Assembly (NCBI GenBank): GCA_913020725.1
Contig: CAJWCD010000001.1
Span: 23,564 to 87,563 of the forward strand
DNA length: 64,000 bases
Origin: an uncultured Pseudomonadota bacterium
GTDB lineage: Bacteria; SAR324; NAC60-12
Reading direction: 5' to 3'
The position numbers and the translations under genes are program-made. The notes beneath the pieces were generated by a model. It saw nothing but the letters and a program-made list of their open reading frames with translations. It did no database searches and was not told the DNA's origin. This document shows positions 3,801-38,408 of this stretch, piece by piece; the first letter of the stretch is position 1, and every line of letters starts with the position of its first letter.

Positions 3801-6389
3801 CGTCGGTTCATCGAAAATGTAGAACGTGTTGCCCGTGGCTTTTTTTCGTAACTCAGAGGCGAGTTTCACACGCTGCGCTTCTCCTCCGGAAAGCGTCGTG
3901 GAGGGTTGCCCAAGCCTGACGTAGCCTAGCCCCACGCTTTGCAGGGCTTGCAGGATGGGAGCGATCTTGGGCTGGCTTGAGAAGAACTCTGCCCCTTCGT
4001 CCACCGTCATCTCTAACACATCGATGATCGTCTTACGCTTGTAGCGGATTTGCAGAGTTTCGGCGTTGAAGCGTTTCCCCTGGCAGGTGTCACAGGGAAT
4101 CTGCACATCCGCCAAAAACTGCATCTCGATGGTCTGCACTCCGTTGCCGTTGCAGTCCCCACAACGCCCACCCCAGACGTTGAAGGAGAAACGGCTTTTG
4201 GTGTAGCCCCGCACCTTCGCTTCCGGAACCTTTGCAAACAGGTCGCGGATGGGGTCCAACACCTTGGTGTAGGTCGCGGGGTTGCTGCGCGGGGTGCGGC
4301 CAATCGGGGCTTGGCTAATCTCGATGACGCGGTCCACATGCTCTAGTCCCGTGATGCGGTCGTGTGGTCCCGGAACCTCAACACTGTTTGGGATGAGTTT
4401 TTGGGCGATCGCCTTTTTGAGAATGCCATCGATGAGCGACGATTTCCCGGAGCCGGAAACCCCCGCCACCGCCACGAAGCAGCCCAGCGGAATCTCGACC
4501 GTCACATCTTGCAGGTTGTTGAGGCGGGCACCGTGGACGGTGAGCCTGTTTTCGCCAAGAGTCCGGTGCTGCTCCGGAAGCGCGATTTGCTCGATGCCTG
4601 CGAGGAATTTTCCGGTGACCGATTCCGGGGTGTTCCGAAGATCACTCACGCTGCCTTCAGCAGTGATGTACCCACCCTCCAACCCAGCGACTGGGCCAAT
4701 GTCCACCAAGTGATCGGCAGATTCGATGGTTTCTTCGTCATGCTCGACCACCAGCACTGTGTTGCCACGATCCCGCAGTTTTTTGAGGGTGCGGATGAGC
4801 TTCTGGTTGTCGCTCTGGTGCAGGCCAATGGAGGGTTCATCCAAGACATAAAGCACCCCTTGGAGTCCGGCTCCAAGTTGTGAAGCGAGCCGGATGCGCT
4901 GGCCCTCGCCGCCAGCGAGTGATCCTGCGGAGCGGTCGAGGGTAAGGTAGCCGACCCCAACATCGTTGAGGAAGTGCAACCGGTCACGGATTTCCCGGAA
5001 AATGTCCCGGCCAATCTTCTGCTCGGTTTCGGTGGGAACGAGGTTCACGAAGAAATCGAGGGCTTCTTCGATGGACACCTCGCTGAGTTGGTCAATCGTG
5101 CGCTCGTGAAAGCGCACCGCCAAGGCCATCGCACTGAGACGCTTGCCGTGACAGTCCGGACAGATCGAGGAGTCCTGGAACTTTTCCATCGGCCCCCGCA
5201 CAAAGCGATAAACGAACTCCAAAATTGGCACCACTCCGGGCCAGTGCCCCTGCTGAATCTTGCGGCGGAGTTGTCCGGGAAAGCGAAAGACATTGGACAC
5301 GCCCAAGGGGGCACTGCCCTTGCCGTGCAGGATGAGGTTGCGCTGCTCTTCCGGAAGCTCACCCCATGGAGTGGACCAACTCACCTTGAGCTTGTTGCTG
5401 GCGGCCTGAAGGTGGGTGTGGTCAATGCGGGTAAAGAGGATATTGCCGCGCTCGGTACAACAAAGCAACGCCCCATCCCGCAGTGAAAGTGCGGGATCGC
5501 AGAGCTTGTCCTCGACAAAGGTGTTCAGCACCCCAAGGCCGTTGCAGGTGGAACATGCCCCTTGCGGAGCGTTGAACGAGAAGAGCCGAGGCTCCATTTC
5601 TGGAAGGGCGGTCTGGCACTTCGGACACGCAAGCAGTTGGCTGAAGAGGTGATCGTGGTCGCAGTAGTTCAGCACCACCAGCCCGTTTGCGAGTTGCAGA
5701 GCTTTCTCCACGCCCTCAGTGAAACGACTCTTTTCGTCGGAGCTGAGCGTGAGGCGATCCAGCACCAACTCGATGGTGTGCTTCTCGTAACGAGCGAGGG
5801 TGATTTCCTCATCAAGCCGCCGCACCTCGCCATCAATCCGCGCCCGCACAAAGCCCTCCTTCGCCCAGCCGACCATTTCCTTGCGGTACTCGCCCTTGCG
5901 TTCGCGGACCATCGGCGCAAGCAGCAGGCAGGTTTCGCCCTCTGCGTCGGCATACGCGAAATCGGTGATCTGCTCCGGAGTTTGGGTGGTCACCGGAACT
6001 TGACACTTGGGGCAGTGCGGAGTGCCCAACCGTGCGAAGAGCAACCGGAAGTGGTCGTACACCTCCGTGATCGTGCCCACCGTGGAGCGTGGGTTGCGGT
6101 TTACCGTTTTCTGGTCAACAGAAATGGTTGGACTGAGCCCCTCGATGTGTTCCACCTTGGGCTTTTCCATCTGCCCAAGGAACTGGCGGGCGTAGGGCGA
6201 GAGTGACTCGACAAAACGTCGCTGGCCCTCCTTGAAGATGGTGTCAAAGGCGAGGGAGGATTTCCCGGAACCGCTCACTCCCGTGAAGACGGTGAGCGCA
6301 TTGCGGGGCAGGGTGAGATTGACGTCCTTGAGGTTGTGTTCGGACGCACCGACAATGACGATTTGGTCAGGCGAATCCGGAGCATCCAT
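849..6389 (-). CDS. uvrA: Excinuclease ABC subunit A, tandem-fused double UvrA (two complete UvrA modules in one 1846-aa ORF)
   Basis: Single 5.5-kb ORF. Four Walker A sites are visible (TGVSGSGKSSLAFDT, AGVSGSGKSSLIDG, TGVSGSGKTSLAFDT, TGVSGSGKSSLVVDT), plus four ABC signature/Walker B pairs and UvrA zinc modules (CPKCQ...CPKCQ, CSTCNGLG, CPHCDGLG, CGDCNGNG). A second UvrA N-terminus (RDLVVKGASKNNLRHVDVRIP...) restarts near residue 940 after a low-complexity linker. Confidence 0.9.
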   Translation of the reverse strand: MDAPDSPDQIVIVGASEHNLKDVNLTLPRNALTVFTGVSGSGKSSLAFDTIFKEGQRRFVESLSPYARQFLGQMEKPKVEHIEGLSPTISVDQKTVNRNPRSTVGTITEVYDHFRLLFARLGTPHCPKCQVPVTTQTPEQITDFAYADAEGETCLLLAPMVRERKGEYRKEMVGWAKEGFVRARIDGEVRRLDEEITLARYEKHTIELVLDRLTLSSDEKSRFTEGVEKALQLANGLVVLNYCDHDHLFSQLLACPKCQTALPEMEPRLFSFNAPQGACSTCNGLGVLNTFVEDKLCDPALSLRDGALLCCTERGNILFTRIDHTHLQAASNKLKVSWSTPWGELPEEQRNLILHGKGSAPLGVSNVFRFPGQLRRKIQQGHWPGVVPILEFVYRFVRGPMEKFQDSSICPDCHGKRLSAMALAVRFHERTIDQLSEVSIEEALDFFVNLVPTETEQKIGRDIFREIRDRLHFLNDVGVGYLTLDRSAGSLAGGEGQRIRLASQLGAGLQGVLYVLDEPSIGLHQSDNQKLIRTLKKLRDRGNTVLVVEHDEETIESADHLVDIGPVAGLEGGYITAEGSVSDLRNTPESVTGKFLAGIEQIALPEQHRTLGENRLTVHGARLNNLQDVTVEIPLGCFVAVAGVSGSGKSSLIDGILKKAIAQKLIPNSVEVPGPHDRITGLEHVDRVIEISQAPIGRTPRSNPATYTKVLDPIRDLFAKVPEAKVRGYTKSRFSFNVWGGRCGDCNGNGVQTIEMQFLADVQIPCDTCQGKRFNAETLQIRYKRKTIIDVLEMTVDEGAEFFSSQPKIAPILQALQSVGLGYVRLGQPSTTLSGGEAQRVKLASELRKKATGNTFYIFDEPTTGLHFQDIRVLLKALDELVVQGNTVLVIEHNLDVLKVADHVIELGPGGGKHGGQVVGVGTPEHLAEQKTLTGQFLAQVLREGAKFQRGKVPKGLGGSTRQRTRAHTNSATETIADSSAKFRALPKVPLRDLVVKGASKNNLRHVDVRIPANKLTVITGVSGSGKTSLAFDTLFAEGQARYVESLSTYARRFLGRMDKAPVDSIEGLTPAIAIDQKRASRNPRSTVATTTEIYDYLRLLFARIGKPHSPKSGRPLRHFTPTRAALHVTEHHDGERVEVLAPLFLPGSTKDLLLDRPDHLSSVVSSLWEDGFVRMLVNGKPVLLDEWDTAKKPRKLTRKTSVDLVVDRVRVEAEEQKRLAEAFETAFSRGHGLLKLRFPDKKKTEWLSEVPADVEDDFFLEEELTPRMFSFNSHVGACPHCDGLGELSSYRGETKCPDCGGERLKPVVRAVKIAGLNISQLCRLNVCEARAELESWRLTRNEQVIAEQPLREILTRLEFLESVGLDYLTLDQRAATLSGGEAQRIRLASQIGSGLVGVMYVLDEPTIGLHPRDTDRLVRTLKRLRDLGNTIIVVEHDLEVIRQADHLVDVGPGAGHYGGMVVASGSPKQVEHKGSSITGKYLSGKKGILIPEERRPVNSQRAILIQGASQHNLKEVDVEFPLGVLTVVTGVSGSGKSSLVVDTLLRAAERRVSGKRVEVGAHRKITGLEYVSQLMVIDQDPIGRTPRSNPATYSKALDPIRDVFAMMPEAKARGFTKRRFSFNAAEGRCATCDGQGYHLIEMHFLSDVWIPCDACKGKRYNRETLTVTYRGQTIADVLGLEITQALELFEAQPRIRRILQTLQDVGLGYMKLGQAGHTFSGGEAQRIKLAAELAKRSKGGTLYILDEPTTGLHVDDVARLLKVLHRLVDEGSTVVVIEHNPEVIKTADWLVDLGPEGGGAGGHLLFSGTPEDCARCPDSYTGQALSPLFGMAPGTALSVPDSGAA

Positions 6390-19456: not shown

Positions 19457-23250
<3,794 letters not shown>

Positions 23251-24327
23251 TCACTCCACAATCCGTCCTTGAAAAATCTGGATTTTCTCGCCATGAACCG
23301 CTCTTCCTTGAGGAAGGGTTGTCGAAGTAATAAAGACTTGGTTCTCCATTTTTTCAAGCGTTGAAATTGTATGGTTGACTACCCTTTGATCCAACTCTGA
23401 AAACAAGTCATCCAAAATGATGACCGGATGGTTCCCCGTCTTCTTTATTAATACCGAATTTATACACAATTTTAAAGACAAATATGTGATGCGATACTCT
23501 CCTTGAGAAAAGAACTCCCGATCTCTTCTCTCACCAAGTTGCATCCGGTAGTCATCCCGGTGAGGACCAACCAGCGCATGGCCGTATTGTCGTTCCCTCC
23601 CAAGGGAACTCTCAATTTCATGAAGAACCGAATCCTCTCCTTTATCCCAGCTGCGGAGAGCAGGTTCGTACTGCAATTCAAGAGCCTCCTCTCGCCCTGT
23701 CAATTCCTGAAAAACCGAGGAGAGTGTTTCGTTGACTTGTGCAACAAATTTCTGTCGTTTTTTTGTGATGCTGACTCCATAACGAGCGAGCAGTTCGTTC
23801 CACGGTTTTATTTCCGCTTCAAGCTGCTGTTTTTTTAGTAGAATATTTTTCTGACCCAGCACCTCCTTGTAGCTCTGCAAATCGGCAAGATGGGTTGAAT
23901 CAAGCAATGAAAGGGTTCGGTTAAAAAAACGGCGGCGTTCCTGAGGTTGATTCCGGAACAAGCTCACACCTTCTGGAGCGAAGGCGAGCGAGGCAAAGGA
24001 CAACATATATTCGGAAGTCCGTTGGAGCACCTTGTGGTCCAAGAGGACGCGTCGACCTTTCTCGTTAACCGTGATGTCGATTTTGTGAAGGACGGAGTTC
24101 CGTTCAACTTCGCCTACAAGACGGGTTGCACAACTCCCGGTGTTGAGCAGGATGGTGGTTTTGCGTGTCCGGAAGGATTCGAGGTTGCAGAGATAGTGGA
24201 TCGCCTCAACCAGATTGGTTTTTCCTTGGCCGTTGCTCCCGATGATCCAATTGCAGGAGGGCGAGAACTTGGCGGAAAGTGTCTTGTAGTTTCGAAATCC
24301 GGTCAGGTTCAGCCCGCGAACTACCAT
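23251..24327 (-). CDS. recF: DNA replication and repair protein RecF
   Basis: Walker A GSNGQGKTNLVEAIHYL and SMC-like signature/Walker B (ILDDLFSELD). 358 aa. Start overlaps the dnaN stop by 7 nt. Confidence 0.88.
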   Translation of the reverse strand: MVVRGLNLTGFRNYKTLSAKFSPSCNWIIGSNGQGKTNLVEAIHYLCNLESFRTRKTTILLNTGSCATRLVGEVERNSVLHKIDITVNEKGRRVLLDHKVLQRTSEYMLSFASLAFAPEGVSLFRNQPQERRRFFNRTLSLLDSTHLADLQSYKEVLGQKNILLKKQQLEAEIKPWNELLARYGVSITKKRQKFVAQVNETLSSVFQELTGREEALELQYEPALRSWDKGEDSVLHEIESSLGRERQYGHALVGPHRDDYRMQLGERRDREFFSQGEYRITYLSLKLCINSVLIKKTGNHPVIILDDLFSELDQRVVNHTISTLEKMENQVFITSTTLPQGRAVHGEKIQIFQGRIVE

Positions 24328-25448
24328 TCAATCCGCAAAGGCATAATCACCGACAGGAAGGAACCATCGGCTTCCTCTCGGACTACACTGGGACTCATGG
24401 GGTTCTTGAACTCCATACGAACCTGAGCGGTGGACATCACTCCGAGGGTATCCAGCAGGTAACGGGAGTTGAAGCCGATCTGGAAATCCTCTCCGGAATA
24501 CTCTGCATCCAGTTCATCACTAACCTCACCATACTCGGCCTTTTCACTTTCCACCCGGAGTTTCCCGGAACTCAGCGTCAGTTTCACAGGACGGAGCTTT
24601 TCCGTGCTGATGGAGGAAACAATCTTGAGTGAACTGACTAAACGCTCCCGGTCCACTGTGGCCACCAAAGTGTTGTCCTTGGGAATGATCGGATCGCAGT
24701 TCGGGAACTTTCCCTCGATCAGCCGTGTCTTGTAGGCGAGGTCATTGCCCATAAACTGCATCACGCGATCATTGAAACTGACCTGAACGGTGTCCCCAAA
24801 CAGCTCAACCGAGCGTCTCACCTCGCTCAGTGCTTTCCGGGGAATAATCACCTCCTGCACTTGGGAAAAGCTTGTACTCTCCGTTTCGGAAAGCACTTGT
24901 GCAAGCCGATGCCCGTCCGTTGCCAACCAACGCACCTTTCCCGTCTCCGGAGTGGTCAAGTTCACCCCCATCAGGTTTCTGCGGGACTCGTTCGTCTGCG
25001 CCGCGAAAAGCGTCATGTCGATTCCGCGCTTCAGATCCTCGACCGGAATTGAGAGTTTTTCCGGAAGGTCCTCAATCTCCGTCTGTGGATACAAGCCGAC
25101 CTCCACAGTTGGAAGCCGGAGTTCCGAACTCCCGCAGGTGGCGTTCACCCAGAGTTGCTCTGTCGATTGAATGTGAACCATCTCTCCGGAAAATTCCCGA
25201 ACGATGTCATACATCTTTCTCGCATTGACGCAGATGCTCCCTTCCTCACGAACCTCAACGGAATGTCTTTCGATCAAGGACAACTCATAATCTGTTGCCG
25301 TGAATTCCGCTTGGGTCTCATCTCCTTCGGCCTCCAAGGTTTTGATTAGAAAATTGGACAGAATTGGTTTCGCCAAACTCTTGTCGATTACGGCAATCAC
25401 ATTCTGAAGAGCGTCTCGTAATACTGAAGTCTTAATTAAGATATCCAT
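24321..25448 (-). CDS. dnaN: DNA polymerase III beta sliding clamp
   Basis: 375 aa with three-domain clamp architecture. N-terminus MDILIKTSVLRDALQNVIAVIDK... and C-terminus ...MPLRIEW are typical of DnaN. Confidence 0.88.
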   Translation of the reverse strand: MDILIKTSVLRDALQNVIAVIDKSLAKPILSNFLIKTLEAEGDETQAEFTATDYELSLIERHSVEVREEGSICVNARKMYDIVREFSGEMVHIQSTEQLWVNATCGSSELRLPTVEVGLYPQTEIEDLPEKLSIPVEDLKRGIDMTLFAAQTNESRRNLMGVNLTTPETGKVRWLATDGHRLAQVLSETESTSFSQVQEVIIPRKALSEVRRSVELFGDTVQVSFNDRVMQFMGNDLAYKTRLIEGKFPNCDPIIPKDNTLVATVDRERLVSSLKIVSSISTEKLRPVKLTLSSGKLRVESEKAEYGEVSDELDAEYSGEDFQIGFNSRYLLDTLGVMSTAQVRMEFKNPMSPSVVREEADGSFLSVIMPLRIEW

Positions 25449-25667
25449 AATTCTCTTTAAATAGTAGTTAGAGGGCAGTTGATTTGTTGATAACTCTACA
25501 ATGTACTGAATTTAATAAATATTTTATCTTTATCAAAGGTCTGGAAGAAGTCGATATAGTTTACCAAACCTTTATCCAATGTAGCAAGAACTGGACGAAA
25601 CTACAGGATTTTTTTGGTTCTGTTGATAAATGTTGGAAGAGTTTTGAAGGAAGGGTTGATAACGTAG
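25449..25667. promoter_or_regulatory. AT-rich dnaN upstream region with repeated DnaA-box-like 9-mers; candidate replication origin or dnaN promoter
   Basis: GTTGATAA[C/A] occurs three times (25487-25496, 25624-25633, 25665-25674). Its reverse complement TTATCAAC(A/C) is 1-2 mismatches from the DnaA box TTATCCACA. TTTATCCAAT is at 25570-25579. A long A+T run (25506-25540) could serve as a DUE. No dnaA gene is adjacent. Confidence 0.35.
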
Positions 25668-26360
25668 CTATCTTGTTGATTTCATATATTTTATGAAAAC
25701 TCCGGAAAGAATGGCTTGGCGACTGAGACTGAGTACGCCATCCAACCAAACCTCTTGCTCAGTGATGAGGGGAGGGCAAAGACAGTGCAACTGAAATTGA
25801 AATCCATTCCAATCTGGTAGCAGAATGATGGTTGCATCCTGAAATTTCAGAGGAACTCGACAGCGGGGAAACAGGCATTTGTAGATTGATTCCTTGGCAG
25901 AAAAGATAGCCTTCAATCCCAAATCAGCTTGAGCGGAGTCAAGGCTCTTCAGCCAAGTTATCTCATCCTCGGTGCAGACGAGCCGGGCAATTCCGGGGTT
26001 GACGGATCGTTCGATCTGTTCCACATCGATCCCAATTGCTGCGATTTCAGAAACTGACGCTGTTGCTGCTGCTGCCCATTTTCCTGAGTGGGTGATGCTT
26101 CCAACGACACCATCTGGCCAGAGGGGTTCTCGAGTGTCCGGATTTCTAGGAATCGGTGAGTCGATCTGCATTTGCTGAAGTGCGAGTCGAGCGCAATGCC
26201 GTCCGCGCCGAAACTCCTTGAGCCGGAGCGGGGAACTGATGGCAGAGGTTGTGGCTTCTTCTTCAGGCAATGCCAAAGGAGGCTCAGGGATACTGGACGC
26301 GAAAAAGTGGACGCTAGAAGGAAAAGGAGAGGGAAGTTCAGAACGCGATTTGTAAGCCAA
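25668..26360 (-). CDS. 4'-phosphopantetheinyl transferase (EntD/Sfp-type)
   Basis: PPTase motifs: WPDGVVGSITHSGKWAAAA, GIDVEQIER and FSAKESIYKCL. 230 aa. Confidence 0.75.
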   Translation of the reverse strand: MAYKSRSELPSPFPSSVHFFASSIPEPPLALPEEEATTSAISSPLRLKEFRRGRHCARLALQQMQIDSPIPRNPDTREPLWPDGVVGSITHSGKWAAAATASVSEIAAIGIDVEQIERSVNPGIARLVCTEDEITWLKSLDSAQADLGLKAIFSAKESIYKCLFPRCRVPLKFQDATIILLPDWNGFQFQLHCLCPPLITEQEVWLDGVLSLSRQAILSGVFIKYMKSTR

Positions 26361-28935: not shown

Positions 28936-29062
28936 CCTCCTCAGTAAGCTTCTGGATAATCCGGATGTTTTCCTGAATCTGCTTCAGGCGCTTCTTGAGG
29001 TTGCGCTTGTTAGGATGCTTTTTGTTTTTTCTACGGGCTGCAGTCGCTGCTTTAGGGGACAT
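28928..29062 (-). CDS. Possible small basic protein (44 aa), uncharacterised
   Basis: MSPKAATAARRKNKKHPNKRNLKKRLKQIQENIRIIQKLTEEDA. GGAG lies 8 nt upstream of the ATG. Not in the track because it is under 60 aa. Its 3' end overlaps the xth start. Could be spurious. Confidence 0.25.
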   Translation of the reverse strand: MSPKAATAARRKNKKHPNKRNLKKRLKQIQENIRIIQKLTEEDA

Positions 29063-29157
29063 TGTTCGTCTCCGATAGGGTTAAAGATAGTTCTGAAAGT
29101 ATAGCGAGTACCCAAAAAATTGCGAGTTTTTTCTTTGTTAACGAACTTGGAGCGAAA

Positions 29158-29460
29158 GTGGCACAGGGAATCAAACTAGATCGACTCATGGATATGCCCC
29201 TCTCTGTGCGCTTAGTGTTGGGCAAATGCGACATGGAGATTGAGGAAATTCTCAAGCTGGGGCAGGGGTCGATCATTGAGCTGGATGCCGAGAATCGGAC
29301 ACCGCTGGAGGTGTGGGTGAACAACCGTATGGTCGCGAAAGCCGAAGTGGTCTTGTCCGATGATCAGATTTGTGCCCGGATTCTGGAGGTCTCGGCGCCC
29401 AAGGAACGCCTTCGGGGGGTTCAAGAAAGCAGCGGGAGAGCAGGAAGCAAGAGTAAATGA
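29158..29460 (+). CDS. FliN/SctQ-like protein (SpoA / surface-presentation-of-antigens domain)
   Basis: C-terminal SpoA motif LPLSVRLVLGKCDMEIEEILKLGQGSIIELDAENRTPLEVWVNNRMVAKAEVVLSDDQICARILEV. The likely start is the GTG at 29158 with GGAG 5 nt upstream (the track ORF starts at 29062). The stop overlaps the heptosyltransferase start (ATGA). Confidence 0.65.
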   Translation: MAQGIKLDRLMDMPLSVRLVLGKCDMEIEEILKLGQGSIIELDAENRTPLEVWVNNRMVAKAEVVLSDDQICARILEVSAPKERLRGVQESSGRAGSKSK

Positions 29461-30509
29461 AAATCCTGCTTATCCAACTCCGGCAGATTGGGGATGTGCT
29501 GATGACGACACCAGCCATCCGTGCCCTCAAGCAAAACAATCCAGATTCGTACCTGAGCTTTGTCACGGAATCCCCGAGCGATCAGGTGCTGCGACTCAAT
29601 CCCTATCTCGACGAATTGCTCCTGTTTGACAAACGGTGGGGAGTTGGTGAAGGCTGGGGCTTCATCCAAAAACTCCGGAGAGGTCAATATGATGCGGCGA
29701 TTGACTTTCACGGAAACCCTCGCAGTGCGTTTTTGTGCTGGATGAGCGGTGCTAAGACTCGGATCGGTTTCAATCACCGTGGGCGCCACTTGGCGTATCA
29801 CCACAAGGTCCGGCCCTCTGATCGGCCCTCCTACTCGGCGGCGGACAAGCTGCGTCTCATCGAACCCCTTGGTGTCAGCGGCGGGACGCTTGCGCTTGAT
29901 TTTCCGATCAGTGATCAGGAGCGTGACTACGCCCAAAAGTTGCTTGAGGGAATGGGAGTAATGCCAGATGATCTGCTGATTTCGATTTCCCCAGTCTCTC
30001 GGCAACCCTACAAGGTTTGGCCCAGCGGATATTTTGCGCAGGTGGCCGACTGGCTGGTGGAGGACTTTCGGGCTAAAATCCTGTTTTTATGGGGACCGGG
30101 AGAACAACATTTCGTAGAAGCCGTGCGTTCCAAGATGAGGAATCCGGCACTTCCGGATTATGAGGTGCCGACGCTTGGCCAGACGAGTGCATTGCTGGAG
30201 AAGGCGTGGTTGCACGTTGGCAACGACAACGGCCCTCGGCATTTTGCGATTGCAGTCAACACTCCGACCGTTGCGGTGTTCGGCAGACCTCGGGTCGTGA
30301 GTTGGACTCCTCCGGATTCCGGCAAGCACTTGGCGCTTGAGCATGACCCCGGATGCAAGTCGCAGTGCCGATTTCCGGATTGTGGCCTTGAGTGTCTTCA
30401 CGGCGTGTCGGTCGTTGCGGTGAAGTCGGAAATTTTACGTCAGTTGAAGATTTTTTCAGGAAACGAGAGTGATGCTGGAAACAAAGGCTCTGCTGGAGCT
30501 TCAGCTTGA
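29457..30509 (+). CDS. ADP-heptose:LPS heptosyltransferase (glycosyltransferase family 9, WaaC/WaaF-like)
   Basis: GT9 N-terminus [26 protein letters not shown], and a C-terminal nucleotide-sugar-binding half ([24 protein letters not shown]). 350 aa. Confidence 0.82.
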
Positions 30510-31083
30510 GCAGGTGAAGCAGTGGCACCGGAAAGCTCCCAGAGCTTGGAGCCAAGATTTTGAGGAAATTTTGAGCCAGCAGCACTTTGCTAATTTCCTG
30601 CTGTGGCACGAAGAGGATTTGGCTCGGGATGCCGAGGCGGCTGATGCTGTGATTGCTCAGGTCAAGCGGGAGATTGATCGGTTAAATCAGTGGAGAAACG
30701 ATTTGATTGAGCAGGTTGATGATGCGCTGACGGGATGGCTTCAGAAGCAGAACCAAGGTGAAGCGACGCTGGAAGAGATGAACAGTGAAACTCCCGGAAG
30801 CATCGCGGATCGGCTCTCCATCAATGCCCTGAAAATTTATCACATGGGAAGCGAGGTGACACGGTGGGACGCCAAGATCACCCACCGCCAAGCGTGTCGG
30901 CAGAAACTGGACTTGCTCTGGGAACAGCGTGAGGATCTTGGCCAGTGTCTGGAAAAGCTCCTGACAGATTTAAAATCTGGGCAGAAGCACCTGAAAGTGT
31001 ATCGTCAGTTCAAGATGTACAACGATCCTGAACTGAATCCAGTGCTTTACCAAATGGGAGAGAAAAAGTGGGGTTGCTGCTGA
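30469..31083 (+). CDS. Conserved hypothetical protein (204 aa), translationally overlapped with the heptosyltransferase
   Basis: Helical/coiled-coil sequence with motif [16 protein letters not shown] and a C-terminal KKWGCC. It overlaps the upstream gene by 41 nt, which suggests co-transcription. It may correspond to a DUF family often found beside GT9 genes, but that recall is uncertain. Confidence 0.5.
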
Positions 31084-31221
31084 TTTTCATGATGATTGGG
31101 GCGATGGTGGCCTTGGGAATCTGGGAAAGAAAGCGTTCCCATCGTCGCTTTCTTGCTGCCCGCAAGCAGTTGCACGAAATGGATACCGCTACACCAAGTG
31201 AAGGTTCTTCTTGACTATGGC

Positions 31222-31494
31222 TCAGCTTCCGGGTTTTCGGGTCAACTGCTGCTTCAGGTTCTTGAGTTCGCTAAGCATGTTAGAGGTGTCGGCCTGTTGC
31301 GGTTCTGGAGGCGAAGCAATCTCAGCTTGGCCCAAGAGTTGGGCAACCGCCTTGGGGCGAGACAAGTCGTGATTGGTGGCGTATTCGTCCAGTTGTCTTA
31401 GTACGGACTCCGGAAGCCCCAGCAGTATCTTTTTGACCGGCTCGTTGTATTCCTTTTTCCGACCGGCTCCTTCTCGGTACCCTCCTCTTGGCAT
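31222..31494 (-). CDS. Ribbon-helix-helix (CopG/Arc/MetJ-like) DNA-binding protein, orphan
   Basis: 90 aa starting MPRGGYREGAGRKKEYNEPVKKILLGLPESVLRQLDEYATNHDLSRPKAVAQLL. This has an N-terminal beta-strand plus two helices typical of RHH repressors or antitoxins. AAGGA lies just upstream of the ATG. No partner toxin gene is evident. Confidence 0.6.
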   Translation of the reverse strand: MPRGGYREGAGRKKEYNEPVKKILLGLPESVLRQLDEYATNHDLSRPKAVAQLLGQAEIASPPEPQQADTSNMLSELKNLKQQLTRKPGS

Positions 31495-31567
31495 ATCCTT
31501 TTGGCCTTAGCTGATTTTCTTGCTCAAGATATTCGTTGAAATGCCGATACGAGGGATGAGTATCCTG

Positions 31568-31596
31568 CCACTCGATGGAGAGTGGTGGTTTTTTTT
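31568..31596 (+). terminator. Intrinsic-terminator-like hairpin (CCACTC-gatgga-GAGTGG) followed by T8
   Basis: 6-bp perfect stem, 6-nt loop, then tgg plus an 8-T run at 31589-31596, read on the + strand. A second hairpin (CTCTCCG-catt-CGGAGAG, 31603-31620) follows immediately. Confidence 0.35.
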
Positions 31597-31635
31597 GCAC
31601 TCCTCTCCGCATTCGGAGAGTTTCCTAGGAGAATT

Positions 31636-31737
31636 ATGAAGACTGTAAAATCCATGCCTACCCGTCGTCTGGCAATTCGCACCCGCTGTTTTCACCTGCT
31701 CACTCCGGAGGAGGTGATGATCCGCAAGGGGTTCTAG
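31636..31737 (+). CDS. Possible 33-codon small ORF with strong SD
   Basis: AGGAG at 31627-31631, 4 nt before the ATG. Translation is MKTVKSMPTRRLAIRTRCFHLLTPEEVMIRKGF. It sits directly downstream of the terminator-like hairpins in an otherwise non-coding ~430-bp gap. Confidence 0.25.
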   Translation: MKTVKSMPTRRLAIRTRCFHLLTPEEVMIRKGF

Positions 31738-31803
31738 GACATTCCTCTGACTCACTCTCCAAGGCTGAGTGTAAGATGATTTGTCCAGTGACACTGGGCG
31801 GTT

Positions 31804-31880
31804 ATATCTAATTGAATAGATATTGTCAACAATCAAACGCCCATTGACCCGCATTTCTTGGCGTTGCACCTGCATTTCTT
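31804..31880. promoter_or_regulatory. Operator-like inverted repeat plus 13-bp direct repeats upstream of the proline-rich ORF
   Basis: ATATCTA-attgaa-TAGATAT (31804-31823) forms a 20-bp dyad. CC(C/T)GCATTTCTTG is repeated at 31848-31860 and 31868-31880. TTGACC is at 31845-31850. Confidence 0.3.
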
Positions 31881-31928
31881 GAGGTGACACCGGAGTGCGG
31901 GTTGGACACGTTACTCAGGAAAAACGCG

Positions 31929-32360
31929 ATGGATTTAGCCAGTCAGGTCAAATGGTTACAGGCCCTGAACGAACGCCTGATCGCTCTGAACGAGCAACTT
32001 GCCCAGCAACGGTCTGCCGACCAAGAGGAGCGACGAGAGTTACTGGATTTGGTCCGTGAACTGAGCCGGAACCTGTTTCAGGCCAAACCGCTTCTGCCGC
32101 CGCCAAGAACCCCTCGTGCGGATTTGCAAGAACCTCCCCCTGACGACCCTCCCCCTGAATTTTCTTCCGAGGCGGCTATCATTCCTTCGGGGGCAGAGTT
32201 TCCAGATTCAGCCAACCCCAAGGATCTCTCTAGGCTGTTCATGTCTCCTACAGCGGTCTCTCGAAAATCTGCACCCTCGATTTCTTCCCCTCGTCTTTCC
32301 AGCAAGCTCCCCGAATTCACCGACTTCGAGTTCTTTCCGGAAGATCGCCGCAAGGTGTAA
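31929..32360 (+). CDS. Hypothetical protein: N-terminal coiled coil plus proline-rich, low-complexity C-terminal half
   Basis: ATG at 31929 with AGGAAA 8 nt upstream (the track ORF begins at the GTG at 31884). MDLASQVKWLQALNERLIALNEQLAQQRSADQEERRELLDL... is followed by PLLPPPRTPRADLQEPPPDDPPPEF and ends EFTDFEFFPEDRRKV. Confidence 0.45.
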   Translation: MDLASQVKWLQALNERLIALNEQLAQQRSADQEERRELLDLVRELSRNLFQAKPLLPPPRTPRADLQEPPPDDPPPEFSSEAAIIPSGAEFPDSANPKDLSRLFMSPTAVSRKSAPSISSPRLSSKLPEFTDFEFFPEDRRKV

Positions 32361-32445
32361 GTCTCGCCTCCGGCAACTCCGCACTTACGGATTTTCTGAA
32401 AATATGGGATAGTGAAAGCTTTACTCGCCGACCTCCATCATTTTC

Positions 32446-34028
32446 ATGCATAAGGTTCTGATCACCGGGGCGATCCATCCGGTTGGGCTTGAGCGCTTGC
32501 AACAAGAGTCCGATGTCGAAGTCCACTACGCTCCGGATTTGCCCTCCGGCGAAATCCTCAAGATCATCGAACTCTTCCACTGCATCCTGACCCGTTCGGA
32601 AACGCCGATTACACGAGAGTTGCTTGACTGCGCCCCGCATCTATGGGTGGTGGCTCGTGCTGCGGTTGGGGTGGGGAACATCGACATCGCCTACGCCACA
32701 GAGCGTGGCATTCTGGTGATCAACACGCCCGCCAAAAACACGAACTCGGCTGCGGAACTCACGCTGGGGCTGGCTGATCAGCACCATGCGCAAGTTGGTG
32801 CCTGCCCACTTGCACATGGCCAGCGAGGGCTGGGATCGGCACCAATTCACCGGCACCGAACTGCTGGGCAAGATGATCGGAATTGTTGGGCTGGGGAACG
32901 TTGGGCATCGAGTCGCACGGTTTGCGCAGGCGTTTGAGATGAAGGTTCTGGCCTACGATCCCCACATTGCCGATGAGGTTTTTGAGCGGCACCAGGTCCG
33001 GAAGGTGAGTTTGGAGGAGTTGCTGACCCAAGCGGATGCCGTCAGTGTTCATGTGCCCAAGAATGCCGAGACCACCGGAATGATTGGGGCAAGCGAGCTT
33101 GCCCAGATGAGGCCCGGGAGTGGTGATCATCAACGCAGCCCGTGGCGGCGTGGTGGATGAAGCGGCTCTGCTGAAAGCTTTGCAATCGGGCCAGGTGGTG
33201 GCGGCTGGAATTGACACTTGGGAGGAGGAACCCCCGCAGGACAATCCTTTCCGGGATTTGCCGCAGGTGGTGATGACACCGCACATTGGGGCATCAACGG
33301 TTGAGGCGCAGATTCGCATTGCGGAAACTATTGCCGTTCAGGTTCCCAAGGCGTTGCGTGGGGAGGTGGTGGATTTTCCCGTGAACATGCCCGCCGTGCA
33401 AGTGCTGGACAGTCCGGTGGTGAAATCCTACACCACCCTTGCGGAGCGTTTGGGGTTGTTTGCCTCGCAGTACATCGGGTTTGCTCCGGATCGGCTGAAA
33501 ATCCACTACCGGGGAGGATTGGCAAAATACGATCCCTCGTTGCTGCGGCTTTGCTTTTTGCGAGGATTGCTGGGCAACACGCACGAGTATGTGAGCTACG
33601 TCAACGCGGACCAAGTCGCCGAGAGTTCCGGGTTGCATGTGGAAGAGGTGCAGGATCCCGGATTCACGGATTATGAAAGTGCGGTCAAGTTTCAACTGGC
33701 TGGAAAGGCGGGAGAGTTCCAGATTAGTGGGGTGGTCTTCAGCGGACCTCACCCCCGGATCACCCGGCTGAACGATTTTGTTTGTGAGATTGAACCAGAG
33801 GGAACAATTTTGGTGACAACCAATGAAGACCGCGCCGGAATGATTGGGATCATTGGCACCTGCCTTGGCGACAATCAGGTCAACATCAACCAATTTGAAT
33901 TGTCCCGGACGAGCCGTGGCGGGGAGGCGATGGCCATGATCCGGGTGGATGACGGCGTTTCGGGGCGGGTCTTGGAAAACCTCCGCACCTGCCCTGGTAT
34001 CACCTCTGTGCGTAAGGTTGTGTTGTAG
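32446..34028 (+). pseudogene. serA: D-3-phosphoglycerate dehydrogenase (SerA) interrupted by two +1 frameshifts
   Basis: Three consecutive ORFs in frames 1, 2 and 0 (32446..., 32786..., 33120...) together give a full SerA. These are the nucleotide-binding GIVGLGNVGHRVARFAQAFEMKVLAYDP, the catalytic ...NAARGGVVDE...TPHIGAST, and the C-terminal ACT domain. Removing one g near 32770-32772 (ctggggctgGctgatc) restores TLGLLISTMRKLVPA. Removing the a at 33119 (cccgggAgtggtg) restores MRPGVVIINAARGG. Confidence 0.7.
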
Positions 34029-37112: not shown

Positions 37113-37202
37113 CTTACCTTGCCTTCCGTCAGTTTTTTTGCTATGTTCAGCATTAGACAGGAACATACGTTCGTGAGTACTTTTTTTTCTATGGAGGTCA
37201 CA

Positions 37203-38408
37203 ATGTCCAATTCACTGAAATTGAGATTCCGGCTTACTTTGTTGCCGTTGGCGTGGCTGATGCTCTGCGGAATCGAGCGGGGTCCGAAGCCAGGCTATGA
37301 GGGCTTCTCGCTCGGAGACCTACAAGCGAATTACGAGGGGCCTTCGGTGATCCCGACCTCGTTTTATTACTTGCTGGCTTTCGTGATTGCCGCAGGGGTG
37401 GGGGGATTCTTTTTGTTGCGCTACATCCGGGCCAAGCAGGAGCAGGAGGAACTGGACAAGATCGTTGACGAGCAGGCGCAGTTGGAACTGGACACGGAAC
37501 TGGAGGCCCGCCGAGTAAGCGAAGAAAACCGGGAGTTTCTCAGAGAACTGTGTGACACGGAGGATCCGGTTGAACTGGTTCCAGTGATTATGTCCTTTGA
37601 GGAGTTTGAAAAGGTGGTGGAGGAATTCAAGGCCTCTCCCCGCTTCCGGGCTCCTGCGCTTGCGCAGATATTCAACCTTCGCAAGGCTTTGGGTTTCACG
37701 ATCAAGAACTCCGAATACGCCTTCCTTTGCACACAAATGCTGCTGAATGGGACGAAGTTGGAATGCCAGATTCATAGCAAAGGCAAGTCTGTTGCGTTTA
37801 TGACAAGTGTGTTGGATGCGAACGAGACAGAGTTGCTGATCAAGCCTCCGACGGTCAAGCGGCGTCCGGCGAACCTGAAGCAGTTTCCCGAAATCGCCTG
37901 CCGATTACGGCGAGAAGGAGATGCCGATTATGACTTCACGCTCCGGGTGCTTGATCAGATCACGGATGAGATGAATGCGGTGGTGCTGGAGCAGTCTAAG
38001 CACATCCGCACAATGAGAATTCGCCAATCAGAGCGGATCTCCGTGAACATAGAGATGGATTTTCAACTTGTATCCGAGGCTCAGTACGAGTTGGAGAAGA
38101 TGGAGGAGCAGTCTCGCGGGGAACACATCCCTATAACCGCCAAGGTGGTGGACATGAGCGCAGGAGGGATCAAGTTGCAGATTTCTAAAATGCCCGCCCG
38201 TCCGATCATCACAGGGGACGTACTGGTGTTTCACTTGGCCCGATCAAGCCTGCGCCAAGATCTGGCTGCTGGAGTATTGCAGGTCGTTCCCCGTGGAGGG
38301 CTTTTCGACCTGCACACGACTTTCCGGGAGATGGATACCTTGACCAGGATCAAGATCAACCAGTACCTTGATCGTGTCCAGAAGAGTGAAATTCCACAGG
38401 CGGCTTAG
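37203..38408 (+). CDS. Membrane-anchored PilZ-domain protein (putative c-di-GMP receptor)
   Basis: Start at ATG 37203 with GGAGG 7 nt upstream (the track ORF begins at 37119). Two N-terminal hydrophobic helices, a coiled coil, and a C-terminal PilZ signature RIRQSER(RxxxR)...DMSAGGIKL (DxSxxG). Confidence 0.6.
   Translation: MSNSLKLRFRLTLLPLAWLMLCGIERGPKPGYEGFSLGDLQANYEGPSVIPTSFYYLLAFVIAAGVGGFFLLRYIRAKQEQEELDKIVDEQAQLELDTELEARRVSEENREFLRELCDTEDPVELVPVIMSFEEFEKVVEEFKASPRFRAPALAQIFNLRKALGFTIKNSEYAFLCTQMLLNGTKLECQIHSKGKSVAFMTSVLDANETELLIKPPTVKRRPANLKQFPEIACRLRREGDADYDFTLRVLDQITDEMNAVVLEQSKHIRTMRIRQSERISVNIEMDFQLVSEAQYELEKMEEQSRGEHIPITAKVVDMSAGGIKLQISKMPARPIITGDVLVFHLARSSLRQDLAAGVLQVVPRGGLFDLHTTFREMDTLTRIKINQYLDRVQKSEIPQAA

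Follow-up and report, generated by a model that had tools for sequence, protein, structure and literature searches.

A small-gene module of SAR324 bacteria: a CopG-like ribbon-helix-helix protein, a divergent microprotein and a putative sigma-28-type promoter

Few bacterial lineages of the dark ocean are as abundant as SAR324. None of its members is in culture, and its regulation is therefore accessible from sequence only. The DNA considered here, referred to as the window, is a stretch of 64,000 nucleotides (nt) of the SAR324 contig CAJWCD010000001.1, and the subject of this work is its segment 30469-32445, located between a glycosyltransferase gene and serA. This segment is a compact, vertically inherited small-gene cluster of the SAR324 phylum. 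It comprises a DUF4254 gene coupled to a GT9 glycosyltransferase gene, together with the genes of a 48-amino-acid (aa) membrane protein, a CopG-like ribbon-helix-helix (RHH) protein, a 33-aa basic microprotein and a coiled-coil, proline-rich protein. Its invariant core consists of the RHH gene, the divergent microprotein gene and the membrane-protein gene that converges on the RHH 3' end. The gene models of this module and the linkage between its genes are directly observed, and the module is undescribed. We read it, with a probability of about 0.55, as a regulatory unit in which production of the microprotein would be timed by sigma-28 (FliA).

Relatives' loci, designated by L-numbers and amounting to 2.8 Mb of DNA in total, were fetched and their gene order was compared by tblastn with the window's proteins. 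In L002-L017 the common order is xthA (minus strand), fliN, GT9, DUF4254, small membrane protein, RHH (minus strand), micro-open reading frame (micro-ORF), in brackets the proline-rich protein, serA and parC. Synteny of the block extends over 15 or more SAR324 genome loci and about 75 metagenome loci, which refutes the description of the segment as poorly conserved in the initial annotation. The same annotation gave it the lowest gene density of the window; in fact five ORFs cover about 1570 of 1977 nt, so that about 79% is coding once the small genes are counted. Four of the five are backed as genes by a family match or by conservation of the coding frame, and the support for the fifth, of 143 aa, consists of protein-level homologs only.

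The micro-ORF, the RHH gene, the hairpins and a dyad had been singled out earlier as signals that standard annotation does not explain, and all of them proved genuine. The accompanying view that nothing in the segment can be tied to a known system holds for the microprotein, the membrane peptide and the proline-rich protein, which belong to no described family. It does not hold for the DUF4254 protein, the CopG-like fold and the sigma-28-type promoter, which are recognisable. The 204-aa and proline-rich proteins did need a family search, as had been said: in Pfam the 204-aa protein is a DUF4254 member, the RHH protein stays below cutoff and the 143-aa protein has no match. PADLOC and PHROGs searches with the five proteins returned weak RHH-repressor matches only. 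An Rfam covariance-model scan of 29000-34000 gave no significant match (best E-value (E) 1.7, to an unrelated snoRNA model), and a scan of L081, L083 and L085 gave no match either.

The conserved core of the module

The three core genes are the following.

31222-31494, minus strand: CopG-like RHH protein, 90 aa, with a basic N-terminal arm MPRGGYREGAGRKKEY (family alignment, PDB profile search, AlphaFold2 (AF2) and Foldseek)
31636-31737, plus strand: 33-aa basic microprotein MKTVKSMPTRRLAIRTRCFHLLTPEEVMIRKGF (ORF conservation, codon-position variation, linkage to RHH)
31068-31214, plus strand: 48-aa single-pass membrane protein, gene convergent with RHH (homologs in 95 loci, codon-position pattern)

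The AGGAG at 31627-31631 and the 33-codon ORF behind it were confirmed. All 15 genome loci preserve a Shine-Dalgarno (SD) sequence, an ATG and an ORF of 33-35 codons, which begins 140-162 nt away from the start of RHH. When the 27 C-terminal codons that align without gaps are compared, variable columns number 12, 7 and 25 at the first, second and third codon positions, pairwise differences 478, 246 and 1173, and synonymous codon differences exceed non-synonymous ones (828 versus 578). Because third-position and synonymous variation dominates, the micro-ORF is a protein-coding gene under purifying selection. The family core reads P..R....R.RC.H.L.P.E...R, and the microprotein has no Pfam, NCBIfam, PADLOC or PHROG match. 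An exhaustive phmmer search of 1.84 billion representative proteins returned only four clusters, all of the same family, and a homolog search with a 51-aa extended ORF returned only three near-identical proteins.

Linkage of this gene to RHH was followed in metagenomes by an alignment-based DNA scan of 241 million records, which yielded 88 stretches; 80 loci were retained. A divergent RHH gene is adjacent in 75 of them; in four of the five exceptions the ORF lies at most 170 nt from a contig end, and the fifth is the phage-like contig L161. Across module loci the distance between the RHH and microprotein genes is fixed at 100-230 nt. The trio of RHH, microprotein and membrane-protein genes is kept together even in wholly different genomic surroundings. 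For instance, L081 and L082 are a syntenic variant of the module without GT9 and DUF4254, while L083-L086 present an unrelated context (groES/EL, moxR, rsmE, fxsA, TPMT), L087 a third one, and L088 and L089 two further ones. A 33-36-aa homolog is divergent from RHH in all of L081-L089, and a 56-64-aa membrane-protein gene converges on or overlaps the RHH 3' end in each of them except L087, whose contig stops 26 nt past the RHH gene.

What follows the micro-ORF is variable. Most clades have a terminator directly after it, and it precedes unrelated genes according to clade: serA, rsmE, an insertion sequence (IS) element or phage genes. In L157 and L158 the 3' end of an ISAs1-like transposase, read by eye from the sequence, comes directly after the micro-ORF 3' hairpin, and this transposase-like stretch stands in place of the dyad block and the proline-rich gene described below.

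Two phage contigs have a microprotein homolog without RHH. On L161, profile matches identify the small subunit of a terminase (phrog_51, E 1e-17) as well as an anti-restriction protein of ArdC type (phrog_7245, E 1e-57); a 41-aa homolog is encoded at 3980-4105, just after the ArdC-like gene, within an array of small genes. In the same way, the IMG/VR contig L170, which is related to L161 over 647 bp at 74% identity, encodes a 46-aa homolog at about 5040-5178 in a small-gene array.

The RHH gene was confirmed at the place and on the strand assigned to it earlier. The N-terminal 57 aa of its product are 77-82% identical across SAR324 loci in which DUF4254, GT9, XthA and ParC reach 49-63%. When 22 family members are aligned, 30 of the first 51 positions show no variation, among them the arm M.RGG.R.GAGRKKEY, the presumed strand L.G.P.SVL and LSRPKA. 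The homolog search collected 140 proteins, all with E below about 1e-18 and all from metagenome-assembled genomes (MAGs) of SAR324 or Lambdaproteobacteria, annotated as "hypothetical" and once as a CopG/Arc/MetJ regulator; no homologs were found in IMG/VR viral contigs.

As for the fold, RHH-type models of Pfam and NCBIfam match at E of about 0.01-0.03, below their cutoffs. The best PDB match of the family profile is CopG (1b01, E 0.021, positions 21-62). The AF2 monomer has a mean predicted local distance difference test score (pLDDT) of 71.6, with 87-89 over its two helices (residues 29-42 and 46-59). Where a strand is expected, at residues 20-27, the model has a helix, a result that the monomer of an obligate dimer can give. 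The top Foldseek matches are nearly all RHH proteins (VapB, MazE-mt10, MatP, CopG, CdbA, AmrZ, Arc), all with E above 0.4. CopG superposes on the model with a root-mean-square deviation of 0.5 A over 35 residues and a target-normalised TM score of 0.75-0.79, again at E above 0.4.

The protein resembles the CopG/Arc/MetJ repressors, of which CopG of pMV158 (PDB 1b01/2cpg) is its best solved-structure match, in the size and order of its elements, and its gene faces its likely target promoter as those of autoregulated RHH repressors do. It differs from CopG by the 20-residue basic and glycine-rich N-terminal arm, invariant in the family, by a leucine-rich C-terminal helix in many members, and by being chromosomal and phylum-wide rather than plasmid- or phage-borne, with Pfam scores below cutoff.

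The membrane peptide was found in 95 loci with 68 unique coding sequences, in which pairwise differences by codon position are 27719, 18008 and 41202. It is called as a gene beside RHH in L081-L089, ranges from 45 to 72 aa across clades, and has no family match in Pfam, NCBIfam, PADLOC or PHROGs. Its stop codon (31214) is separated by a gap of 7 nt from that of RHH (31222) in the window, and the two genes overlap by 20-41 nt in L081, L083 and L085. It had been stated that the RHH gene has neither toxin nor partner. No toxin domain is indeed found nearby; the convergent membrane peptide and the divergent micro-ORF are its constant partners.

Predicted promoters and the microprotein leader

The region between the RHH gene and the micro-ORF, and the one just beyond, contain the elements below.

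31523-31550, plus strand: predicted sigma-28 (FliA)-type promoter, CTCAAG (31523-31528), 14 nt, GCCGATAC (31543-31550), with a predicted start near 31558 (conserved bipartite motif)
31565-31596, plus strand: 9-bp hairpin CTGCCACTC-gatgga-GAGTGGTGG followed by U8 (terminator scan, minimum-free-energy fold)
31603-31620, plus strand: second leader hairpin CTCTCCG-catt-CGGAGAG, upstream of AGGAG (fold; conserved in L001, L002 and L160)
31801-31829, minus strand: predicted sigma-70-type promoter, TTGACA (31829-31824), 17 nt, TATAAC (31806-31801) (conserved sequence block)

Alignment of the intergenic region revealed two invariant boxes, upstream of the micro-ORF in every locus, separated by a spacer that is variable in sequence and fixed in length. 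Searched on both strands of the 2.8 Mb, the pattern [CT]T[AC]AAG-N15-CCGAT[AG] gave 20 matches, 19 of them upstream of a micro-ORF and one off-target. The motif is also present in most metagenome loci and, with small variations, in L087, L088, L089 and L168. It reads CTAAAG-N14-GCCGATAA in L085, TTAAAG-N14-GCCGATAA in L081 and CTAAAG-N14-TCCGATAT in L083. The fliC promoter of P. aeruginosa consists of TCTAAAG (-36 to -30) and GCCGATAA (-15 to -8) with a 14-nt gap (PMC12784957). The conserved motif corresponds to this reference (TAAAG, 14 nt, GCCGATAA), with one mismatch per box in the window and with the spacing fixed in 20 or more loci, and it is best read as a putative sigma-28-type promoter of the microprotein gene.

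A link of the module to the late flagellar regulon is credible. Flagellar motility genes have been reported in all SAR324 genomes, with Group 2B having half of the motility genes (PMC9031357), and flagellar motility with scattered flagellar genes was also described (PMC4782131). The genome considered here likewise has its flagellar genes scattered. In the window, a solitary fliN-like gene (29062-29460) is located just upstream of GT9, and a 429-aa protein of YcgR type, with PilZN and PilZ domains as in flagellar brakes responding to cyclic di-GMP, is encoded 5 kb downstream (37119-38408).

The hairpin followed by a T-tract, which had been described as a near-canonical terminator, was confirmed at 31565-31596, and so was the second hairpin at 31603-31620. 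The first one has the anatomy of an intrinsic terminator (9-bp stem with five GC pairs, 6-nt loop, U8), and the terminator scan recovered it as the sole strong site of the region. As a class, terminator-like sites are not enriched (two found versus 2.3 expected from shuffles). Its pairing is kept through exchanges of U.G to G-C type in L001, L002 and L159/L160. Because the putative sigma-28-type promoter lies upstream, this "terminator" falls within the 5' leader of the micro-ORF, where it would span +8 to +39 of the predicted transcript. In other clades the equivalent position is taken by a 5'-proximal hairpin of different sequence, which in the main SAR324 clade is followed by a second, AU-rich hairpin with a U-rich tail. 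We read the hairpin-U8 as a structure of the leader, where it may attenuate transcription; an additional or alternative role would be to end transcripts that run on from the convergent upstream operon.

In its strongest form, this last option makes the hairpin-U8 the intrinsic terminator of a plus-strand operon formed by GT9, DUF4254 and the membrane peptide, its place in the micro-ORF leader being incidental or doubling as insulation. With 7 nt between the two stop codons, or with overlapping genes, a terminator cannot be accommodated ahead of the convergent RHH gene, so that the operon transcript would run antisense across RHH; the scan detected no other plus-strand terminator between 31214 and 31565, and the anatomy is canonical. 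On the other hand, the structure is located 350 nt beyond the stop codon and just downstream of the conserved promoter, and other clades keep a hairpin at the same promoter-relative position despite a different sequence and U-tract. We regard this explanation as possible but not favoured, and it is in any case compatible with a leader role.

In the main SAR324 clade (L003-L017) the word TTCAAG occurs three times in the leader region of the micro-ORF, one copy being the -35 box and the other two lying in the loops of the two leader hairpins, one in each, with spacings of 41 and 34 nt (hand count in L007). It is not found in the window's clade. This repeat could be a protein-binding word.

Downstream of the micro-ORF, the dyad ATATCTAattgaaTAGATAT was confirmed at 31804-31823, where it occurs once in the window against 0.02 expected. 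It corresponds to the spacer and part of the -10 element of the predicted minus-strand promoter, which is oriented towards the RHH gene and reads antisense across the micro-ORF. The 43-nt block that surrounds the dyad, GGTTATATCTAATTGAATAGATATTGTCAACAATCAAACGCCC, is shared without change by the window, L001 and L160 and is near-identical in L002, with flanks that diverge; L081 keeps TTGACA-17-TATAAA in an otherwise unalignable spacer. The spacer and -10 region of a promoter is a classical operator position. Binding of the RHH protein to the dyad, suggested previously, is plausible given that this conserved promoter, of which the dyad forms the spacer, is directed at the RHH gene.

Several points weigh against a sigma-28-timed RHH/microprotein module. 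Both boxes of the window carry one mismatch (TCAAG for TAAAG, GATAC for GATAA), and scans of the 64-kb window with a sigma-28 position weight matrix and with CCGATA detected no second site. A flagellin search across all fetched loci found none, so that no SAR324 flagellin promoter is at hand for comparison, and the module adjoins no flagellar gene in L083-L086. The strong hairpin-U8 is limited to the window's clade, and the evidence for the RHH fold is statistically weak (Pfam below cutoff, Foldseek E above 0.4). The minus-strand promoter is present only where the proline-rich gene follows the micro-ORF, and it may therefore serve the regulation of that gene rather than of RHH. Moreover, every step of the mechanism (promoter use, DNA binding, target of the microprotein) is deduced from sequence.

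Some of these points would also suit a different reading of yTmAAG-N14-GCCGATA, as an RHH operator or as the promoter of another alternative sigma factor in a module unrelated to flagella. There is no independent SAR324 sigma-28 promoter to compare it with, the module is away from flagellar genes in L083-L087, and the two additional TTCAAG copies of the main-clade leader are possible protein-binding sites. However, both boxes and their exact spacing fit the sigma-28 consensus, including the diagnostic GCCGATAA -10 element, the spacer is free to vary in sequence and fixed in length, and the orientation of the motif and its distance to the ORF suit a promoter. This reading is considered unlikely, and the sigma-28-type promoter is retained as the preferred interpretation.

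A toxin-antitoxin (TA)-like locus was also considered, in which RHH would be a type II antitoxin deprived of its toxin, or the membrane peptide or microprotein a type I toxin under antisense control. The weak profile matches of RHH to antitoxins (VapB, BrnA, HicB-like, all at E of about 0.01) and the presence of VapB and MazE antitoxins among its top Foldseek matches are in line with the first version. The architecture of the membrane peptide, which is that of type I toxins, its convergent and overlapping partner gene, and the predicted minus-strand promoter antisense to the micro-ORF suit the second one. Yet the locus is single-copy, syntenic and vertically conserved through the phylum, with an RHH domain more conserved than its housekeeping neighbours, and no toxin domain is present nearby, nor any toxin family match in Pfam, NCBIfam or PADLOC. 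The neighbours of RHH are a convergent 48-aa membrane peptide and a divergent 33-aa basic protein, which does not correspond to a type II pair, and an orphan antitoxin was rejected given these constant neighbours and the phylum-wide vertical conservation. With regard to type I, the locus does include a hydrophobic peptide and a convergent, overlapping gene, and its distribution is vertical and syntenic across the phylum rather than patchy or multicopy. The microprotein itself is highly basic and not hydrophobic, which speaks against the small toxic peptide proposed earlier, and the main-clade micro-ORF has a bidirectional terminator and no antisense promoter. Because of the phylum-wide vertical conservation and the lack of a toxin domain, TA readings are very improbable.

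The attenuator or leader layout put forward in the initial annotation, with a terminator, an antiterminator hairpin and a leader peptide controlling the proline-rich protein or serA, draws on the proximity of a terminator-like hairpin, a second hairpin able to form an alternative pairing with the 3' arm of the terminator, a strong SD and a short ORF, but it is hardly tenable and was rejected because the ORF follows the terminator, beginning 40 nt past the U-tract, and encodes a peptide that is under purifying selection and kept in phages, without a run of regulatory codons, with its own terminator right after it in most clades and with downstream genes that vary by clade (serA, rsmE, IS element).

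Flanking genes and a deletion junction

The remaining features of the segment and its boundaries are listed here.

31847-31902, plus strand: long hairpin in the leader of the proline-rich gene, enclosing both 13-mers (fold)
31929-32360, plus strand: 143-aa protein with an N-terminal coiled coil (LNERLIALNEQLAQQRSADQEERREL) and a proline-rich disordered tail with an LSRLFM motif (protein-level homologs)
29457-30509, plus strand: GT9 glycosyltransferase, LPS heptosyltransferase-like, left boundary (Pfam PF01075, 100.7 bits versus a cutoff of 22)
30469-31083, plus strand: DUF4254 protein, 204 aa (Pfam PF14063, E 8.5e-50)
31053/31054, no strand: deletion junction (three-way alignment with L001 and L002)
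32446-34028, plus strand: serA (D-3-phosphoglycerate dehydrogenase) with two frameshifts, right boundary (tblastn with L081 SerA)

The proline-rich coiled-coil ORF was confirmed, with 143 instead of 144 aa. Its product has no Pfam or NCBIfam family match and only seven close homologs in protein databases. Relatives detected by tblastn at 30-48% identity share the N-terminal coiled coil and LS(R/Q)LF(M/L). One is at the same position in L081; others are beside or near the module in L083-L086 and L159-L169, with a distance of a few genes in L083-L086 and L162-L169. The protein belongs to a fast-evolving family that travels with the module. The 43-nt dyad block is absent upstream of the homologs in L083 and L085. 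There, a non-coding region of about 500 nt (L083 5534-6047, L085 5494-6044) precedes the gene, with blocks shared by both loci, a promoter-like site TTGCAG-17-TACTTT, GC-rich hairpins (e.g. CCTACCatcgGAGGTAGG) and no Rfam match, and it could represent a long leader or a structured RNA that has not been described.

In the leader of the proline-rich gene, two exact 13-mers CC(C/T)GCATTTCTTG were confirmed at 31848 and 31869. They had been called operator-like. With up to two mismatches the pattern gives four matches versus 4.4 in shuffles, and the second copy is not retained in L002 and L160; given this chance-level frequency and poor conservation, the 13-mers were rejected as operators. The hairpin that encloses them keeps its closing stem with one-sided changes in L160, and its interior is not conserved.

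On the left side, the GT9 gene scores 122 bits with the NCBIfam heptosyltransferase III model, under its cutoff of 170 bits, and stays under cutoff for all NCBIfam equivalogs (heptosyltransferase I/II/III, RfaQ). The 204-aa ORF overlaps it by 41 nt, as had been noted. This protein is a full-length DUF4254 member, its residues 33-177 covering profile positions 2-144 of 144 at 168.8 bits versus a gathering score of 27. With the 204-aa protein as query, a scan limited to one genome per species collected 352 relatives, the closest of which (90%, 80%, then about 55% identity) are MAGs of the SAR324 cluster or "Deltaproteobacteria". Among 80 other DUF4254 loci, which come from SAR324 and Planctomycetota, 35 have a GT9 homolog at most 1.5 kb away, so that the window's protein resembles the family in its genomic neighbour, and differs from it by a C-terminus changed by deletion. 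DUF4254 is barely mentioned in the literature, as a family without known function. A PDB sequence search with the protein gave coiled-coil noise only, and its single-sequence AlphaFold model (pLDDT 51) was too poor for a fold search.

Alignment with L001 and L002 indicated that, at 31053/31054, the window lacks a piece of about 620 bp that L001 has; in L002 this piece measures about 250 bp. The deleted DNA contained the DUF4254 stop codon, a minus-strand gene of 68-72 aa and the upstream region of the membrane-peptide gene. As a consequence of this deletion of about 620 bp, the last ten or so DUF4254 codons (...MGEKKWGCC) come from the former ribosome-binding region of the membrane-peptide gene: the "KKWGCC" tail, once pointed out as a feature of the protein, is a translated former upstream region and not a motif. 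An exact-sequence look-up of the 204-aa protein returned no record, as expected for a protein with a deletion-fused C-terminus. The deletion could be real or an assembly artefact.

Homologs of the deleted 68-72-aa protein, which co-occurs with the proline-rich protein, were found in L001, L002, L081, L083, L085 and L158-L169 and not in the window. In several clades, a gene for an 85-88-aa protein with several predicted membrane helices (L081 4391-4657, L088 5623-5880, L089 1181-1438) has the small membrane peptide on one side and either DUF4254 or the 68-aa gene on the other. The same slot is filled by the 68-72-aa gene in L001, L002 and L158-L160, which belong to the window's clade, and the window has neither gene.

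On the right side, serA is in three pieces in frames 3, 1 and 2, with frameshifts near 32772 and 33115, and the pieces are otherwise 58-74% identical to the intact homolog of L081. The gene is not at this position in the closest relatives L001 and L002, is truncated in L007 and L015 and is missing in L017. The window's serA either became a pseudogene recently or owes its frameshifts to an assembly error.

About 6 kb from the module, the AT-rich 220-bp spacer at 25449-25667 has DnaA-box-like words of TTATCCAA and TTGATAA type. Directly to its left are minus-strand dnaN (24321-25448), recF (23251-24327) and probably gyrB. The cumulative GC-skew minimum of the window falls within 23000-26000, and two 1-kb bins drop to a GC content of 0.44-0.47. 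This spacer is probably the chromosomal replication origin.

Proposed mechanism and significance

In the mechanism that we propose, the microprotein gene would be transcribed from the sigma-28-type promoter along with late flagellar genes. Its mRNA would start near 31558 and open with the hairpin-U8, which would serve as a leader structure and may attenuate transcription. An RHH dimer would bind operators in the shared control region, the dyad or both, and transcription from the minus-strand TTGACA-17-TATAAC promoter would extend into RHH and be antisense to the microprotein mRNA. The microprotein would be a trans-acting small modulator, and the most economical guess is that it acts on RHH or on RHH targets; a role of this kind would account for phages that have the microprotein without RHH.

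Parts of this scheme have parallels in known systems. In the "excludon" of Listeria, the long transcript of the motility repressor MogR runs antisense to flagellar genes. Likewise, the predicted minus-strand transcript would be antisense to the sigma-28-type micro-ORF and continue into a regulator gene; this arrangement differs in being predicted and confined to clades in which the proline-rich gene follows the micro-ORF. Compared with the FlgM/sigma-28 checkpoint, the microprotein is also small, sits behind a predicted sigma-28-type promoter and could feed back on transcription. It has, however, no similarity to FlgM (no Pfam match), is 33-36 aa long against about 100, and has as its partner an RHH protein instead of a sigma factor.

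Phage anti-repressor and acr-aca type pairs couple a small effector gene to an RHH or helix-turn-helix autoregulator. The module shares with them the tight coupling of a small-protein gene to the gene of a small DNA-binding repressor, and microprotein homologs occur in phage early-gene arrays beside an anti-restriction gene. The differences are that the pair is a core chromosomal locus, divergent and not operonic, that the phages lack RHH, and that the small protein has no PADLOC or PHROG match. Finally, AmrZ of Pseudomonas (PDB 3qoq) is an Arc-like RHH protein that represses fleQ and flagellar genes (PMC10146422). It is an RHH transcription factor linked to motility control, and it is a structural match of rank 38 to the window's RHH. 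AmrZ has no specific sequence kinship with this protein and no microprotein or membrane-peptide partner, and the flagellar link of the window's RHH relies on the promoter motif and the neighbouring fliN only.

A bolder version of the scheme, which is speculative and rather doubtful, would make the microprotein a new trans-acting switch, produced only once sigma-28 is active at the end of flagellar assembly and binding RHH, RNA polymerase or the ribosome to reset phylum-specific transcription. SAR324 phages would have captured it to force this switch, two more control layers would come from the membrane peptide and the antisense promoter, and the checkpoint would be unrelated to FlgM.

The DNA-binding domain of the module is more conserved than adjacent housekeeping genes, and the microprotein has been mostly missed by gene callers, as the four clusters among 1.84 billion representative proteins indicate. 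A stretch described as gene-poor and poorly conserved can thus be packed with genes of fewer than 50 codons, and since such stretches may be gene-dense, flagging them is worthwhile. If it is true that the microprotein modulates RHH, the module would provide a new small-protein checkpoint in motility control as well as an example of a host microprotein hijacked by phages.

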